Shown: piece after piece, positions 12,540 through 17,631 of the stretch
Numbering within the stretch: the stretch's first letter is position 1
Layout of the letters: each line of letters starts with the position of its first letter
Assembly: GCF_003018115.1 (NCBI RefSeq)
Contig: NZ_CP027457.1
DNA: 64,000 nt
Strand: one strand, 5' to 3'
DNA from: Escherichia coli
GTDB taxonomy: Bacteria > Pseudomonadota > Gammaproteobacteria > Enterobacterales > Enterobacteriaceae
Made by a program: the position numbers and the translations under genes
Notes under the pieces: model-generated
The model's database searches: none
What the model saw: the letters and a program-made list of their open reading frames with translations, nothing else
Told to the model about the DNA's origin: nothing

Positions 12540-12608
12540 GCTGCCTCATTTTCCGCCTGGCTGGACTATCTTTAGGACTGGCACAGGAAGAATATGAGGA
12601 AGCGAACG

Positions 12609-14669
12609 ATGAGCAAGGCAGGCAAAATAACCGCTGCGATTTCAGGGGCTTTCTTGTTGTTGATTGTCGTGGCGATCATTTTGATTGCAACTTTTGACTG
12701 GAATCGACTCAAACCGACCATCAACCAGAAAGTCTCTGCGGAGTTGAATCGTCCGTTCGCTATCCGTGGCGATCTGGGCGTTGTGTGGGAGCGGCAAAAA
12801 CAAGAAACTGGCTGGCGCAGCTGGGTGCCGTGGCCCCATGTACACGCGGAAGACATCATTCTTGGCAATCCACCGGATATTCCCGAAGTCACGATGGTGC
12901 ATTTGCCACGCGTAGAGGCAACGCTGGCACCGTTGGCGCTGCTGACCAAAACGGTCTGGCTACCGTGGATCAAACTGGAAAAGCCCGACGCACGCCTGAT
13001 TCGCCTCTCTGAAAAGAACAATAACTGGACGTTTAATCTTGCCAACGATGACAACAAAGACGCGAATGCAAAGCCGTCGGCATGGTCGTTTCGGCTGGAT
13101 AATATTCTTTTCGATCAAGGGCGGATCGCCATTGATGACAAAGTAAGCAAAGCGGATCTGGAGATTTTTGTTGATCCGTTAGGCAAGCCGCTGCCGTTCA
13201 GCGAAGTTACTGGATCGAAAGGTAAAGCGGATAAAGAAAAGGTGGGCGATTACGTTTTTGGCCTGAAGGCGCAGGGACGTTATAACGGTGAACCGCTCAC
13301 GGGTACGGGAAAAATAGGCGGTATGCTGGCGCTGCGTGGCGAAGGGACGCCGTTTCCGGTACAGGCTGATTTCCGCTCTGGTAACACCCGTGTTGCTTTT
13401 GATGGCGTCGTGAATGACCCAATGAAGATGGGCGGTGTCGATTTACGGCTTAAATTTTCTGGCGATTCACTGGGTGATCTCTATGAACTGACGGGCGTTC
13501 TGCTGCCCGATACCCCGCCGTTTGAAACGGATGGTCGGCTGGTAGCGAAAATCGACACTGAAAAATCGTCGGTCTTTGATTATCGCGGTTTTAATGGGCG
13601 AATTGGCGATAGCGATATCCACGGTTCTCTGGTCTACACCACCGGAAAGCCACGACCAAAACTGGAAGGTGATGTCGAGTCGCGGCAATTGCGGCTGGCG
13701 GACCTGGGACCGTTGATTGGCGTTGATTCCGGGAAAGGGGCAGAAAAGTCGAAACGGTCTGAACAGAAGAAGGGCGAAAAAAGCGTTCAGCCTGCGGGCA
13801 AAGTGCTGCCTTATGACCGCTTCGAAACCGATAAATGGGATGTCATGGATGCCGATGTTCGCTTCAAAGGGCGGCGCATTGAGCATGGCAGTAGCCTGCC
13901 GATTAGCGATCTTTCTACTCATATCATCCTCAAAAATGCTGACCTGCGCCTGCAACCGCTGAAATTTGGCATGGCGGGTGGCAGCATTGCGGCGAATATT
14001 CATCTGGAAGGCGATAAAAAGCCGATGCAGGGGCGGGCAGATATTCAGGCTCGTCGACTGAAACTGAAAGAACTGATGCCCGATGTGGAACTGATGCAGA
14101 AGACGCTGGGGGAAATGAACGGTGACGCAGAACTGCGCGGTAGCGGTAACTCGGTGGCGGCACTTTTAGGCAACAGTAACGGCAACCTGAAACTGTTGAT
14201 GAATGACGGGCTGGTGAGCCGCAACCTGATGGAGATTGTTGGGCTGAATGTCGGCAACTACATTGTCGGTGCGATATTTGGTGATGATGAGGTGCGGGTG
14301 AACTGCGCGGCGGCGAATCTGAATATTGCCAACGGCGTGGCGCGCCCGCAGATTTTTGCTTTCGATACTGAGAACGCGTTGATTAACGTTACCGGCACGG
14401 CAAGTTTTGCTTCCGAACAGCTGGATTTGACTATTGATCCGGAGAGTAAAGGGATTCGGATTATCACACTGCGTTCGCCGCTGTATGTGCGTGGGACGTT
14501 TAAAAATCCGCAGGCTGGGGTGAAAGCCGGGCCGTTGATTGCCCGTGGTGCTGTTGCTGCGGCACTGGCAACGCTGGTAACACCGGCGGCGGCGTTACTG
14601 GCACTGATCTCACCTTCCGAAGGGGAGGCTAATCAGTGTAGGACGATATTGTCGCAGATGAAGAAGTGA
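12609..14669 (+). CDS. yhjG: AsmA-family inner-membrane-anchored protein YhjG
   Basis: ORF 12594..14669; N-terminal TM anchor then large periplasmic AsmA-like domain; likely start MSKAGK giving 686 aa. Confidence 0.88.
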   Translation: MSKAGKITAAISGAFLLLIVVAIILIATFDWNRLKPTINQKVSAELNRPFAIRGDLGVVWERQKQETGWRSWVPWPHVHAEDIILGNPPDIPEVTMVHLPRVEATLAPLALLTKTVWLPWIKLEKPDARLIRLSEKNNNWTFNLANDDNKDANAKPSAWSFRLDNILFDQGRIAIDDKVSKADLEIFVDPLGKPLPFSEVTGSKGKADKEKVGDYVFGLKAQGRYNGEPLTGTGKIGGMLALRGEGTPFPVQADFRSGNTRVAFDGVVNDPMKMGGVDLRLKFSGDSLGDLYELTGVLLPDTPPFETDGRLVAKIDTEKSSVFDYRGFNGRIGDSDIHGSLVYTTGKPRPKLEGDVESRQLRLADLGPLIGVDSGKGAEKSKRSEQKKGEKSVQPAGKVLPYDRFETDKWDVMDADVRFKGRRIEHGSSLPISDLSTHIILKNADLRLQPLKFGMAGGSIAANIHLEGDKKPMQGRADIQARRLKLKELMPDVELMQKTLGEMNGDAELRGSGNSVAALLGNSNGNLKLLMNDGLVSRNLMEIVGLNVGNYIVGAIFGDDEVRVNCAAANLNIANGVARPQIFAFDTENALINVTGTASFASEQLDLTIDPESKGIRIITLRSPLYVRGTFKNPQAGVKAGPLIARGAVAAALATLVTPAAALLALISPSEGEANQCRTILSQMKK

Positions 14670-14689
14670 TGAGGTTGGATTGTGTTTGC

Positions 14690-14895
14690 TGGTGAGTTCG
14701 GGAGCAGCGTGTTCCCCTCACCCTAACCCTCTCCCCAAAGGGGCGAGGGGACTGTTTTGTGCGTGTTGAAACAACGAGTACCGCTTTTCCGTTCACTTTC
14801 TGGGGGAGGGCTGTTATGTTCGCGATATAACATCTCGCTCCGCTTTTCTCCCTCTCCCTTTCAGGGAGAGGGCTGGGGTGAGGGTGGCTGCCCAC
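14690..14895. repeat. Intergenic repetitive stem-loop element(s) between convergent yhjG and yhjE
   Basis: Two near-perfect palindromic units (ccctctcccc aaa ggggcgaggg; ccctctccc tttca gggagaggg) with flanking gtgaggg/cctcaccc motifs; convergent 3' ends, so likely bidirectional terminator or repeat family. Confidence 0.6.
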
Positions 14896-14902
14896 ACGAT
14901 AC

Positions 14903-16225
14903 TTACAACGACTGATGTCGCGTCTCATGGGTCAGCAGCAGGGCGATTAACGTCAAGCCAGCCATCGCCGCCAGATATAACCCCACCGCACCTAACCCGT
15001 AGTTAGCCTGCAACCAGGCTGCGATATATGGTGCAACGGAAGCCCCGAGAATCGACGCTACGTTGTAAGAGAACGATGCTCCGGTGTAACGCACTTCTGT
15101 CGGGAACAGCTCTGGTAACAGCGCGCCCATCGGCCCGAAGGTCAGTCCCATCAGACTTAACCCCAGCAGCAGGAAGGCAAAAACCAGAATCGGGTTGCCA
15201 GAACCGAGCAGCGGGTTAAAGGCGAACAGCGCGAACAGGATGATCAGCGTGGTGATGATTACCATGCTTTTACGGCGACCAAAGGCATCAGCCAGTAATC
15301 CGGCGACTGGCACCATCACGCCAAAACCAATAACTGCCATCATCAGCATCCACAACACTTCGTTACGCGGCAGGCCAAGCCCAACTGGCGCGGCGGCGGT
15401 ACTGAAGGTCATAGAGTAGACCGTCATGATGTAAAACAGCGTATAGGTTGCCAGCATAATGAACGTACCCAGTACGGTTACGCGAACATGTTTGGTCAGC
15501 AGCGTACCCAGCGGGATCTTCACCTGTTTTTTCGCTTTAGCGACTTTCTCAAACACCGGCGACTCATGCAGCGACACGCGAACATACAGGCCGATAATGA
15601 CCAGCACCGCCGAGAAGATAAATGGCACACGCCAGCCCCAGCTCATAAACTGCTCGTCGGTCAGTAGCCAGGAAAGCAGCAAGAAAGTGCCGTTGGCAAA
15701 GAAGAAGCCAATCGGTGCGCCCAGCTGTGGGAAGGAGCCATACAGTGCACGTTTGCGCGGTGGGGCGTTTTCAGTCGCCAGCAGCGCCGCGCCGCCCCAT
15801 TCACCGCCTAAGCCCAGACCCTGACCAAATCGAGCCAGCGCCAGCAGCAGCGGGGCGAAAATACCAATCGTGGCATAGCCCGGCAGCAGACCAATCACCA
15901 CGGTCGAAATCCCCATCGTTAGCAACGAGGCGACCAGCGTCGCTTTACGCCCAACGCGATCGCCAAAATGACCAAATACGGCAGAGCCAATGGGGCGTGC
16001 GACGAAGGCGATGGCGAAGGTGGCGAGCGACTGTAGCGTTGCTGCCGTAGGATCGCCCTGCGGGAAGAAGATATGCGGAAATACAATAACGGCCGCAGTG
16101 GCGTAAATATAAAAGTCGAAGAACTCAATGGCCGTGCCAATGAGAGAGGCGACAAGGACTTTATTACGCGAGTTGATCGGCGTGTATTCTTGCTCGTGGT
16201 CGAGTGTTGTGGCTGTTGCTTGCAT
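14903..16225 (-). CDS. yhjE: MFS metabolite:H+ symporter-family transporter YhjE
   Basis: 440-aa ORF, 12-TM MFS signature; synteny. Confidence 0.9.
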   Translation of the reverse strand: MQATATTLDHEQEYTPINSRNKVLVASLIGTAIEFFDFYIYATAAVIVFPHIFFPQGDPTAATLQSLATFAIAFVARPIGSAVFGHFGDRVGRKATLVASLLTMGISTVVIGLLPGYATIGIFAPLLLALARFGQGLGLGGEWGGAALLATENAPPRKRALYGSFPQLGAPIGFFFANGTFLLLSWLLTDEQFMSWGWRVPFIFSAVLVIIGLYVRVSLHESPVFEKVAKAKKQVKIPLGTLLTKHVRVTVLGTFIMLATYTLFYIMTVYSMTFSTAAAPVGLGLPRNEVLWMLMMAVIGFGVMVPVAGLLADAFGRRKSMVIITTLIILFALFAFNPLLGSGNPILVFAFLLLGLSLMGLTFGPMGALLPELFPTEVRYTGASFSYNVASILGASVAPYIAAWLQANYGLGAVGLYLAAMAGLTLIALLLTHETRHQSL

Positions 16226-16538
16226 AATCTTTTCTTATTTTTTGGCTAACGAATAGCCATATTACGCACAGCAAAAGTGATATTTCAATGTGTAACAAAT
16301 CGCGGAAATGGTCAAAAACCAGGCAAAAAGGGGATAATGTTTAGGCCAGTGATTTTTCTTCTATGAAATGCTTCACATAATTTTATAAATAGTGGATAAA
16401 ACTGGTTTCAGGTTAAATAAAAGTTACCAACTGGATTTATATGCTGGGGTTATGAGTTGGCATGAAATTGTTTGCTCCCAAATAGATGGCTGAAGAGGCT
16501 CTGGGGAAGAGTTTCAAGAGGTTATGTGCGCATTATAG

Positions 16539-16616
16539 CCGGATGCGATGCTGGCGCATCTTATCCGGCCTACGGGGAGCCAGGCCGAATAAATTCGTAC
16601 GCCGCATCCGGCCTAG
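16539..16616. repeat. REP/BIME element (two inverted REP units)
   Basis: gccggatgcgatgctggcgcatcttatccggcctac and inverted partner aggccgaataaattcgtacgccgcatccggcctag match the canonical E. coli REP (PU) consensus. Confidence 0.8.
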
Positions 16617-16617
16617 T

Positions 16618-17631
16618 TTAAGGCTGCGTTTTCCCCGGCATTCGCGGGTCGTCTTTATATTCGGCGGTGGCAATCCACGCCGCGCAAAACAGCGTCAAAC
16701 GGGCGAAGAAGTAGAAAAATGCCATCAGCCCCAGCACGGAACCAAATGCTGCACCAGAGGGGGATTTCATCAGCGATGGCAGGGTGTAGGTCATCACGAT
16801 TTTAATCACTTCAAAACCAATAGCAGCCAGAAATGTTCCGCGAATCAGGGCTTTTTTGCGCGGACGGTGGCGCGGTAACCGCCAGAAGATCCAGAAGAAA
16901 AGCAGATAGTTGGCGAAGATGGAAATCGCCAGGCCAATCAACCGCCACGTCGGTTTCAGCCACTCAATGCTGTTCAGGTGCAGGGCGCTAATAATCATTT
17001 GCTGCGCCGAACCGGCAACCGAGGTGATCGAAAGCGTCACAATCAGCGCAATCAACAAACCAATCAGCGAAATAAAATCACGCAGATATTTTACCCAGAA
17101 CTTCTCCTGATCTTGCGGCGAGCGTTCCCAGACATCGCGCGACTGGGCGCGAATCGCTTCACGCAGGTTACCCATCCAGTTGATGCCGGAATAAAGCGCC
17201 ACCGCCAGGCCGACAAGTCCTACAGTCGTACGCTGCTGAACGGCAGTGTTGATGGTGTTTTTCAATGTGGCGGCTAGCGTCGGATCGCTGATGTTTTGCA
17301 GAATTTTGTCGAAGATATCCTGTAGCAACATCGGATGGGAGGCCAGAACAAAGCCCCCTGCGGCAAACGACACCATCAAAATCGGGATCATCGACAAAAA
17401 TGAGAAATAGGTGATAGCCGCACCAAACTGGTTACCCAGCCGATCGTTAAAGCGTTCTGTCGCGCGAATAAGGTGCGCAATAACCGGTTGGCGTTGGACT
17501 TTTTCGGCAGTGGTGGTGACGGTTTCCAGCGCCTGGCTAACTTTGCCGCCTTTCTCGCTATTATCCAACTGCTTAATCGGCTCGTGCTCCAGATCCTGGG
17601 TGGGACGTTTGATCTCGTTTTCCTGCGTCAT
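16618..17631 (-). CDS. yhjD: Inner membrane protein YhjD (YihY/BrkB family)
   Basis: 337-aa polytopic membrane ORF; synteny. Confidence 0.88.
   Translation of the reverse strand: MTQENEIKRPTQDLEHEPIKQLDNSEKGGKVSQALETVTTTAEKVQRQPVIAHLIRATERFNDRLGNQFGAAITYFSFLSMIPILMVSFAAGGFVLASHPMLLQDIFDKILQNISDPTLAATLKNTINTAVQQRTTVGLVGLAVALYSGINWMGNLREAIRAQSRDVWERSPQDQEKFWVKYLRDFISLIGLLIALIVTLSITSVAGSAQQMIISALHLNSIEWLKPTWRLIGLAISIFANYLLFFWIFWRLPRHRPRKKALIRGTFLAAIGFEVIKIVMTYTLPSLMKSPSGAAFGSVLGLMAFFYFFARLTLFCAAWIATAEYKDDPRMPGKTQP

Follow-up and report, generated by a model that had tools for sequence, protein, structure and literature searches.

An inverted pair of BoxC repeats between the convergent genes yhjG and yhjE of Escherichia coli

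The yhjG–yhjE intergenic region

The stretch of DNA considered here (hereafter the window) comprises 64,000 nucleotides of the Escherichia coli contig NZ_CP027457.1. Two genes of the window, yhjG and yhjE, converge on a gap of 233 bp, where an initial annotation of the sequence had described a cluster of palindromic repeats, and both the open reading frames and the annotation of matching genomes agree with that placement. The coordinates of the genes are those of the ORF list, whereas their names were taken from the annotation in more than 5400 matching E. coli genomes. The features framing the gap are the following:

12594–14669, + strand: yhjG, AsmA family protein, with a TGA stop codon at 14667–14669
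14670–14902: yhjG–yhjE intergenic region in its BoxC allele, 233 bp, the gap that separates the two convergent gene ends
14903–16225, − strand: yhjE, MFS transporter, with its stop codon at 14903–14905
14629–14928, − strand: ORF of 99 aa with an ATG start, spanning the whole gap

The last of these features, which has a regular start codon and crosses the entire region, could be read as an antisense gene for a small protein. However, this ORF runs into yhjG at one end and into yhjE at the other, covering the 3′ end of each gene, no annotated feature lies beneath its match in any of the genomes listed, its sole Pfam match falls below threshold (E-value of 0.084, 13.9 bits against a cut-off of 27.9), and the underlying sequence is missing from about 70% of E. 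coli genomes, which leaves a coding role with next to no credibility.

Two units of a family with several names

Dispersed intergenic repeats named BoxC have been known in E. coli since the 1990s (survey by Bachellier et al. 1999), and the family has been listed as a 56 bp sequence with 32 copies (PMC2267715). The name PIT, for potential intrastrand triplex elements, comes from the work of Hoyne et al. (2000, J Mol Biol 302:797) and Hoyne and Maher (2002, J Mol Biol 318:373). More recently, Holder et al. (2015, NAR 43:10126, PMC4666352) treated BoxC, PIT and TMECO as one motif, defined by the pattern 5′-CCCTCNCCC-N3-6-GGGNGAGGG-N3-GGGNGAGGG-3′, where a second loop of sequence TTA marks a type A unit and CCG a type B unit. 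This pattern has two exact matches in the window, at 14715–14749 on the − strand and at 14850–14884 on the + strand, against 0.00 expected from 100 shuffles. Judged from these matches, the yhjG–yhjE cluster is almost certainly an inverted pair of BoxC (= PIT = TMECO) repeats, in which the unit of the − strand belongs to type A and that of the + strand is type B-like. The elements that we distinguish within the gap are these:

14715–14749, − strand: left unit, BoxC/PIT/TMECO type A (“A mm”, one mismatch), matching the published pattern exactly
14850–14884, + strand: right unit, BoxC/PIT/TMECO type B-like, exact match to the published pattern
about 14793–14813, + strand: degenerate half unit, TCACTTTCTGGGGGAGGGCTG, a direct repeat 86% identical to 14855–14875
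14750–14810 and 14811–14872, + strand: a tandem pair of modules, diverged from each other and about 61 nt long, with direct repeats spaced 59–62 nt
14752–14847, no strand assigned: locus-specific spacer between the full units, single-copy and outside the dispersed repeat

Each unit is built from three blocks. The C-rich one pairs with the first of two G-rich blocks as a hairpin, and the other G-rich block, a mirror image of the first, gives G*G-C, A*A-T and T*A-T triads with that hairpin. The isolated G-rich strand of each unit can fold in this way as an intrastrand triplex of the purine motif. On the − strand, the left unit reads CCCTCGCCC-CTTTG-GGGAGAGGG-TTA-GGGTGAGGG, which corresponds on the + strand (14713–14751) to CCCCTCACCC-TAA-CCCTCTCCCC-AAA-GGGGCGAGGGG; both C blocks can serve as partner of its G block, with one mismatch in each case. 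Eight of the nine positions of blocks 1 and 2 form Watson-Crick pairs, and all nine triads are of the allowed purine-motif kind. With its flanks, the conserved extent of this unit reaches from about 14710 to 14755 and is by eye identical to the copy between ygfF and gcvP in K-12, while the unit together with the next base, a G, is identical to K-12 TMECO numbers 7, 11 and 15 of Holder Table 1.

The right unit, CCCTCTCCC-TTTCA-GGGAGAGGG-CTG-GGGTGAGGG, carries CTG in place of CCG as second loop, whereas the left one has the TTA of type A. This one-base variant has a precedent, given that the CTG-loop unit number 8 was filed as type B in Holder Table 1 (PMC4666352). Its hairpin is a perfect stem of 10 bp, CCCTCTCCCT/AGGGAGAGGG (14850–14859 and 14863–14872), closed by a 3-nt loop and followed by CTG-GGGTGAGGG; Watson-Crick pairs and allowed triads both amount to 9/9, and the DNA fold reaches −11.0 kcal/mol, with z-scores of −3.0 on the + strand and −3.7 on the − strand. 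The conserved extent of the right unit, about 14841–14885 with its flanks, includes upstream the sequence CGCTTTTC, common to the K-12 copy. Left and right units are inverted copies of each other over 35 nt, 83% complementary and 100 nt apart.

Between the two full units, the half unit at 14793–14813 keeps a loop, one G block (GGGGGAGGG at 14802) and the CTG, and has lost both the C block and the third block. It forms part of a longer duplication, since each of the modules of about 61 nt follows the layout CTGTT…AACA…CCGCTTTTC…TTTC-GGG.GAGGG, that is, a duplicated “spacer + hairpin arm”. The global alignment of both modules scores 21, compared with −11.1 ± 4.2 in 2000 shuffles, none of which reaches that value. 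Tandem Repeats Finder (TRF) reported no array in 14600–15000, as the duplication is too diverged for it. The divergence between the modules, about 30%, is far above that found within the species, indicating that the duplication is either old or imported.

A chance origin of the unit motifs is excluded. The 9-mers GGGNGAGGG or CCCTCNCCC occur seven times in the 64 kb of the window, all of them inside 14715–14884, and the 21-mer GGGAGAGGGYYRGGGTGAGGG, which covers two blocks, occurs twice against 0.01 expected. The initial annotation had described hairpin units with ccctctcc/ggagaggg cores and cctcaccc/gggtgagg flanks, which is accurate for the two full units found here. The exact motif that it derived from them, searched here as CCCTCTCCC-N3-6-GGGAGAGGG, has a single match in 64 kb (0.00 expected): it recovers the right unit and misses the left one because of the C/T mismatch in the left hairpin.

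A pair already present in the published catalogue

The close inverted pairs of K-12 always combine a type A with a type B unit (Holder et al. 2015, PMC4666352), and the yhjG–yhjE pair, with its A unit on the − strand and its B-like unit on the + strand 100 nt away, obeys this rule. Moreover, the same two 36-mers, 100 nt apart, are found in Supplementary Table S8 of the same study for the strains E24377A (entries 98/99, 3987937–3988108), SE11 (186/187) and IAI1 (216/217), and the E24377A coordinates fall between yhjE and yhjG. The sequence of the right unit (B) occurs 14 times in the text of that table. The pair is thus already known, down to the level of the locus, and as an annotation it carries little weight: a textbook-level E. 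coli repeat family, with a copy that had been catalogued.

Among the units reported for K-12 (23, against 26 in SE11; Holder et al. 2015, PMC4666352), four pairs show the “+−” arrangement with gaps of 16–27 nt and a single one the “−+” arrangement with a gap of 59 nt (Holder Table 1, PMC4666352). Compared with them, the yhjG–yhjE pair shows the less common “−+” configuration and a longer spacer of 100 nt, and the same locus in K-12 lacks BoxC. It differs from the published BoxC/PIT/TMECO description in the degenerate third half unit held by its spacer and in a CTG instead of a CCG loop, and in nothing essential. Its likeness to the family extends to the exact pattern, a type A unit identical to K-12 copies, the inverted A + B arrangement, and an intergenic, chromosomal and dispersed occurrence.

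The sole “−+” A/B pair of K-12, with its spacer of 59 nt, lies in the gap between lldD and trmL (positions 226–358 of the locus fetched for the comparison), and its units have immediate flanks in common with those of the window (GACYGTT… and …TTTTCT). When the spacers of both pairs were aligned, the score was reached by 128 and 21 of 3000 shuffles, a marginal likeness that is confined to those immediate flanks.

Distribution in E. coli and alleles of the gap

A blastn search with the 233 bp found 66,486 places of the BoxC family in 5388 of 5426 complete E. coli genomes, with a median of 14 places per genome (range 1–25) and 26 of the 66,486 on plasmids. The dispersed intergenic repeat family that the initial annotation had suspected is therefore real, and the contrary possibility, that the motif might occur at this place only, does not hold with about 14 occurrences per genome. 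The BoxC loci of E. coli number roughly 62. The 96 nt of the spacer (14752–14847) behave differently in the same kind of search: 1600 of the 5426 genomes have them, each at a single place and never at a second locus. It follows from this single-copy interior that what is dispersed is a unit about 45 nt long and not the composite of 170 bp.

The units of K-12 were reported as always intergenic (Holder et al. 2015, PMC4666352). In NZ_CM187532.1, a BoxC pair of 246 bp (3015831–3016076) lies beneath an annotated CDS, ycjD, for a DUF559 domain protein, which may be an over-extended gene call.

A six-strain alignment of the gap between yhjG and yhjE revealed five alleles:

BoxC long allele, 233 bp (this window): A unit, half unit and B unit
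BoxC short allele, 172 bp (O102:H6): 61 bp fewer, with the junction inside the repeated GGGGG/GAGGG and a canonical CCG loop
REP/BIME allele, 181 bp (K-12 and O157:H7): REP elements after a strong hairpin that abuts the yhjG stop codon
One-REP-pair allele, 117 bp (E400634): a shortened REP allele
Minimal allele, 40 bp (W224N): little beyond the hairpin

Of the 5426 genomes, 1616 (about 30%) carry the BoxC allele in its complete length of 233 bp, with the long spacer in 1469 of these; strain W (LY180) is, like SE11, IAI1 and E24377A, among the carriers of this allele, whereas the K-12-like REP allele accounts for 3578 (66%) and the remaining alleles for about 4%. The hairpin of the REP/BIME allele, a stem of 14 bp directly 3′ of the yhjG stop, folds with −15.4 kcal/mol (z-score of −8.7). 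The alleles differ over the entire gap, from 3 nt past the yhjG stop to the yhjE stop codon, which amounts to an allele replacement rather than a clean insertion into a conserved empty site. TMECO loci were reported to show far more “intergenic change” than control intergenic loci (Holder et al. 2015, PMC4666352), and the polymorphism between yhjG and yhjE fits this tie between the units and local instability. Taken as a whole, the region offers a natural allelic series between the same convergent genes, from a BoxC pair through a short BoxC, a REP/BIME and a one-REP-pair form to a hairpin of 40 bp.

The same gene gap thus holds unrelated repeat families, BoxC or REP/BIME, in different lineages of E. 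coli. As for the minimal gap of 40 bp, the yhjG/yhjE flanks of strain W224N (NZ_CP094339.1, 201698–203105) are 88.9% identical to the window, compared with 96–99% in other E. coli, which suggests either a divergent lineage or an imported segment.

BoxC among other structured repeats

Both BoxC and the REP/BIME (PU) elements are short, GC-rich imperfect palindromes scattered over intergenic regions, where they often separate convergent genes and alternate in orientation, and REP occupies this very gap in 66% of E. coli genomes. Their sequences are nevertheless unrelated: no GCCGGATG/CATCCGGC core occurs in 14670–14902, whereas a core of the GCCGGATG…CATCCGGC type is present in the K-12 allele of the gap and, within the window, at 16539–16612. 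A REP is, in addition, a two-arm hairpin without the third mirror block that BoxC has. The partners of REP include IHF, gyrase, Pol I and the RAYT transposase, whereas we know of none for BoxC. The yhjG–yhjE pair also resembles the REPIN and MITE doublets in its two inverted copies able to fold as one long hairpin, but its interior is locus-specific and single-copy, and neither a target-site duplication nor an associated transposase was found. With H-DNA and mirror-repeat tracts it shares purine/pyrimidine mirror blocks and a reported association with genetic instability (PMC4666352); unlike in H-DNA, the triplex of BoxC is intrastrand, made of a hairpin and a third block, and was shown for isolated single strands in vitro alone (PMC4666352).

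The canonical REP elements with which the units had been contrasted from the outset are genuine and distinct from them. They form an inverted pair at 16539–16612, downstream of yhjD, with GCCGGATGCGATGCTGGCGCATCTTATCCGGCCTAC (from 16539) followed by GCCGAATAAATTCGTACGCCGCATCCGGC. An Rfam search by E-value over 13500–17500 gave no match inside 14670–14902, and the REP-derived naRNA4 family had matches below threshold at 16521–16570 (for instance 16535–16569), with 30 bits against a gathering score of 59.5.

Possible roles of the units

Any RNA-level role would start from the fact that both convergent transcripts would enter the units, which could act as a bidirectional terminator, as the initial annotation had put forward, or as REP-like 3′-UTR stem-loops that block 3′-5′ exonucleases and so set or stabilise the mRNA 3′ ends of yhjG and yhjE. 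REP elements stabilise upstream mRNA, and REP together with a strong hairpin follows the yhjG stop at the same position in two thirds of E. coli genomes. The region itself folds strongly (251 nt, −106.3 kcal/mol with a z-score of −4.2 and −96.5 kcal/mol with a z-score of −5.0, one per strand), the A and B units pair as a long stem in the RNA fold, and on the + strand the left unit is followed by a weakly U-rich GACUGUUUUGUG. However, neither hairpin has a U-tract 3′ of it on either strand, there is no run of five or more U after either stem, and a scan of 14300–15300 on both strands yielded 0 terminator-like and 0 promoter-like sites. PIT elements, moreover, acted neither as promoters nor as terminators and left RNA polymerase unaffected according to Hoyne and Maher (2002), in the summary that Holder et al. 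give of that paper (PMC4666352). With no hairpin plus U-run, and with reporter tests negative in that same second-hand account, an intrinsic (Rho-independent) terminator finds no support. The K-12 family shows no orientation bias with respect to genes and is found upstream of ORFs oftener than downstream (PMC4666352), and the units of Mitsuaria chitosanitabida described below have no clear bias towards gene 3′ ends either (63 versus 46 among the matches listed, with crude GC3 gene calls), all of which makes an RNA-level role distinctly unlikely. Even less can be said for a binding site of a nucleoid-associated or other sequence-specific DNA-binding protein, the former also proposed initially, which we regard as very improbable. 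A conserved protein could explain why GGGAGAGGG and GGGTGAGGG show no base change from phylum to phylum whereas loops and flanks differ, but the IHF core consensus is absent from the region (its six matches in the window all lie elsewhere), in vivo DMS footprinting left the guanines unprotected (Holder et al. 2015, PMC4666352), and the BoxC/PIT/TMECO literature examined reports no binding protein. The initial annotation thus stands as regards the distinct hairpin units, the dispersed family and the position between yhjG and yhjE, whereas the terminator and nucleoid-protein functions find no support.

An origin by transposition would make the pair a non-autonomous element of the MITE or REPIN kind that entered the yhjG–yhjE gap, either with the inverted units as its ends or with single units mobilised in trans by some enzyme. 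In its favour, the terminal inverted repeat measures 35 nt (83%). The family is dispersed, with a copy number of 1–25 places per genome; strain 55989 has 29 units and IHE3034 just one (Holder et al. 2015, PMC4666352), type A always pairs with type B (PMC4666352), and, among the matches listed, identical blocks abound in a betaproteobacterium, a Methylomirabilota MAG and Ca. Contendobacter, with 27 “−+” against 0 “+−” close pairs in Mitsuaria. The single-copy interior of 96 nt nonetheless implies that the composite has not transposed as a unit, the Mitsuaria spacers are unrelated from locus to locus, and no target-site duplication is visible at the borders. Likewise, it is replacement of the whole gap, and no clean insertion, that separates the alleles, plasmids carry as few as 26 of the 66,486 places of the family, and no association with transposons, phages or plasmids was reported (Holder et al. 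2015, PMC4666352). The composite as a MITE is rejected on account of its single-copy interior and the missing border duplication, in spite of the inverted ends, and mobility of either kind appears unlikely on balance. We also know of no cognate transposase for the BoxC units.

Proposed local instability without a dedicated function

The reading that we prefer joins the identity of the pair with a mechanism and, taken as a whole, has in our estimation a probability of about 0.8. The units would serve no dedicated purpose in yhjG or yhjE expression, but would be structure-prone repeat DNA, selfish or neutral, tolerated between convergent gene ends. Whenever the DNA became transiently single-stranded, during replication or repair, a hairpin or triplex could stall the polymerase, and the hairpins of both units, being short direct repeats of each other, could promote slippage or unequal recombination. 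Such events could have produced the duplication of about 61 nt, the allele shorter by 61 bp and the unusual number of alleles. Since a hairpin, being palindromic, repeats its partner in direct as well as in inverted orientation, a duplicated “spacer + hairpin arm” would be expected from unequal exchange.

The mechanistic part on its own, local instability without a dedicated function, is one that we favour by a narrow degree. The indel of 61 bp is bounded by repeated G blocks, and the internal duplication is significant against shuffles. The TMECO oligonucleotides of types A and B form a triplex in vitro, as seen by CD and NMR (Holder et al. 2015, PMC4666352), but the double-stranded motif gave no triplex signal (Holder et al. 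2015, PMC4666352) and DMS footprinting in vivo found the guanines protected by neither protein nor triplex (PMC4666352). These negative results for duplex DNA and for living cells weaken the structural mechanism. The replacement of the whole gap is unlike simple slippage at the units, and could result from ordinary recombination between lineages that had diverged independently. In the literature from 2016 onward on TMECO and intrastrand triplexes, we found no later functional assignment. The exact conservation of the three blocks in very distant bacteria is, moreover, more than a model of structure-prone “junk” would predict.

The same motif in distant bacteria

When the TMECO pattern was scanned over species-representative genomes, at least 120 stretches were listed, which are to be taken as examples and not as a taxonomic census. 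Among the matches listed there were at least 150 units in Mitsuaria chitosanitabida (Betaproteobacteria, NZ_BCYP01…, fetched loci L016–L127), at least 13 on 8 contigs of a Methylomirabilota MAG (JACPAT01…, L008–L015) and at least three in Ca. Contendobacter (L023–L025). In these distant lineages, the blocks CCCTC[T/G]CCC, GGGAGAGGG and GGGTGAGGG agree with those of E. coli, whereas loops and flanks are genus-specific; in the matches listed for Mitsuaria, each unit is followed by TCTTCGGGCT.

The close pairs of Mitsuaria among these matches adopt, in all 27 cases and with no “+−” pair, the “−+” orientation of the pair in the window. Their spacers, of 30–272 nt, are non-homologous between loci, and 11 of the 27 contain a TRF array (periods of 7 to 73 nt, among the matches listed), compared with 0.75 expected from an even distribution of arrays across the entire DNA fetched, coding and non-coding alike. 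We found no description of this cross-phylum pattern of pairs and spacers in the literature examined, and the comparison suggests that the BoxC family could be more than local junk. On the grounds of the base-identical blocks, the “−+” bias and the tandem-array spacers, the BoxC/TMECO units could be conceived as recognition or stall sites of a conserved process, beyond triplex-prone junk, an idea that we regard as a long shot. If it were true, hypervariable sequence between genes would be generated, or else sheltered, by the pairs of units. This lead leaves the verdict on the yhjG–yhjE pair unchanged.

Several of the Mitsuaria arrays duplicate a “hairpin + spacer”, much like 14750–14872 in the window. 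Examples of the Mitsuaria pairs, in coordinates of the fetched loci, are L017:1626–1808, L032:1328–1477, L073:167–319, L074:1677–1854, L079:4816–5005 and L113:10466–10642.
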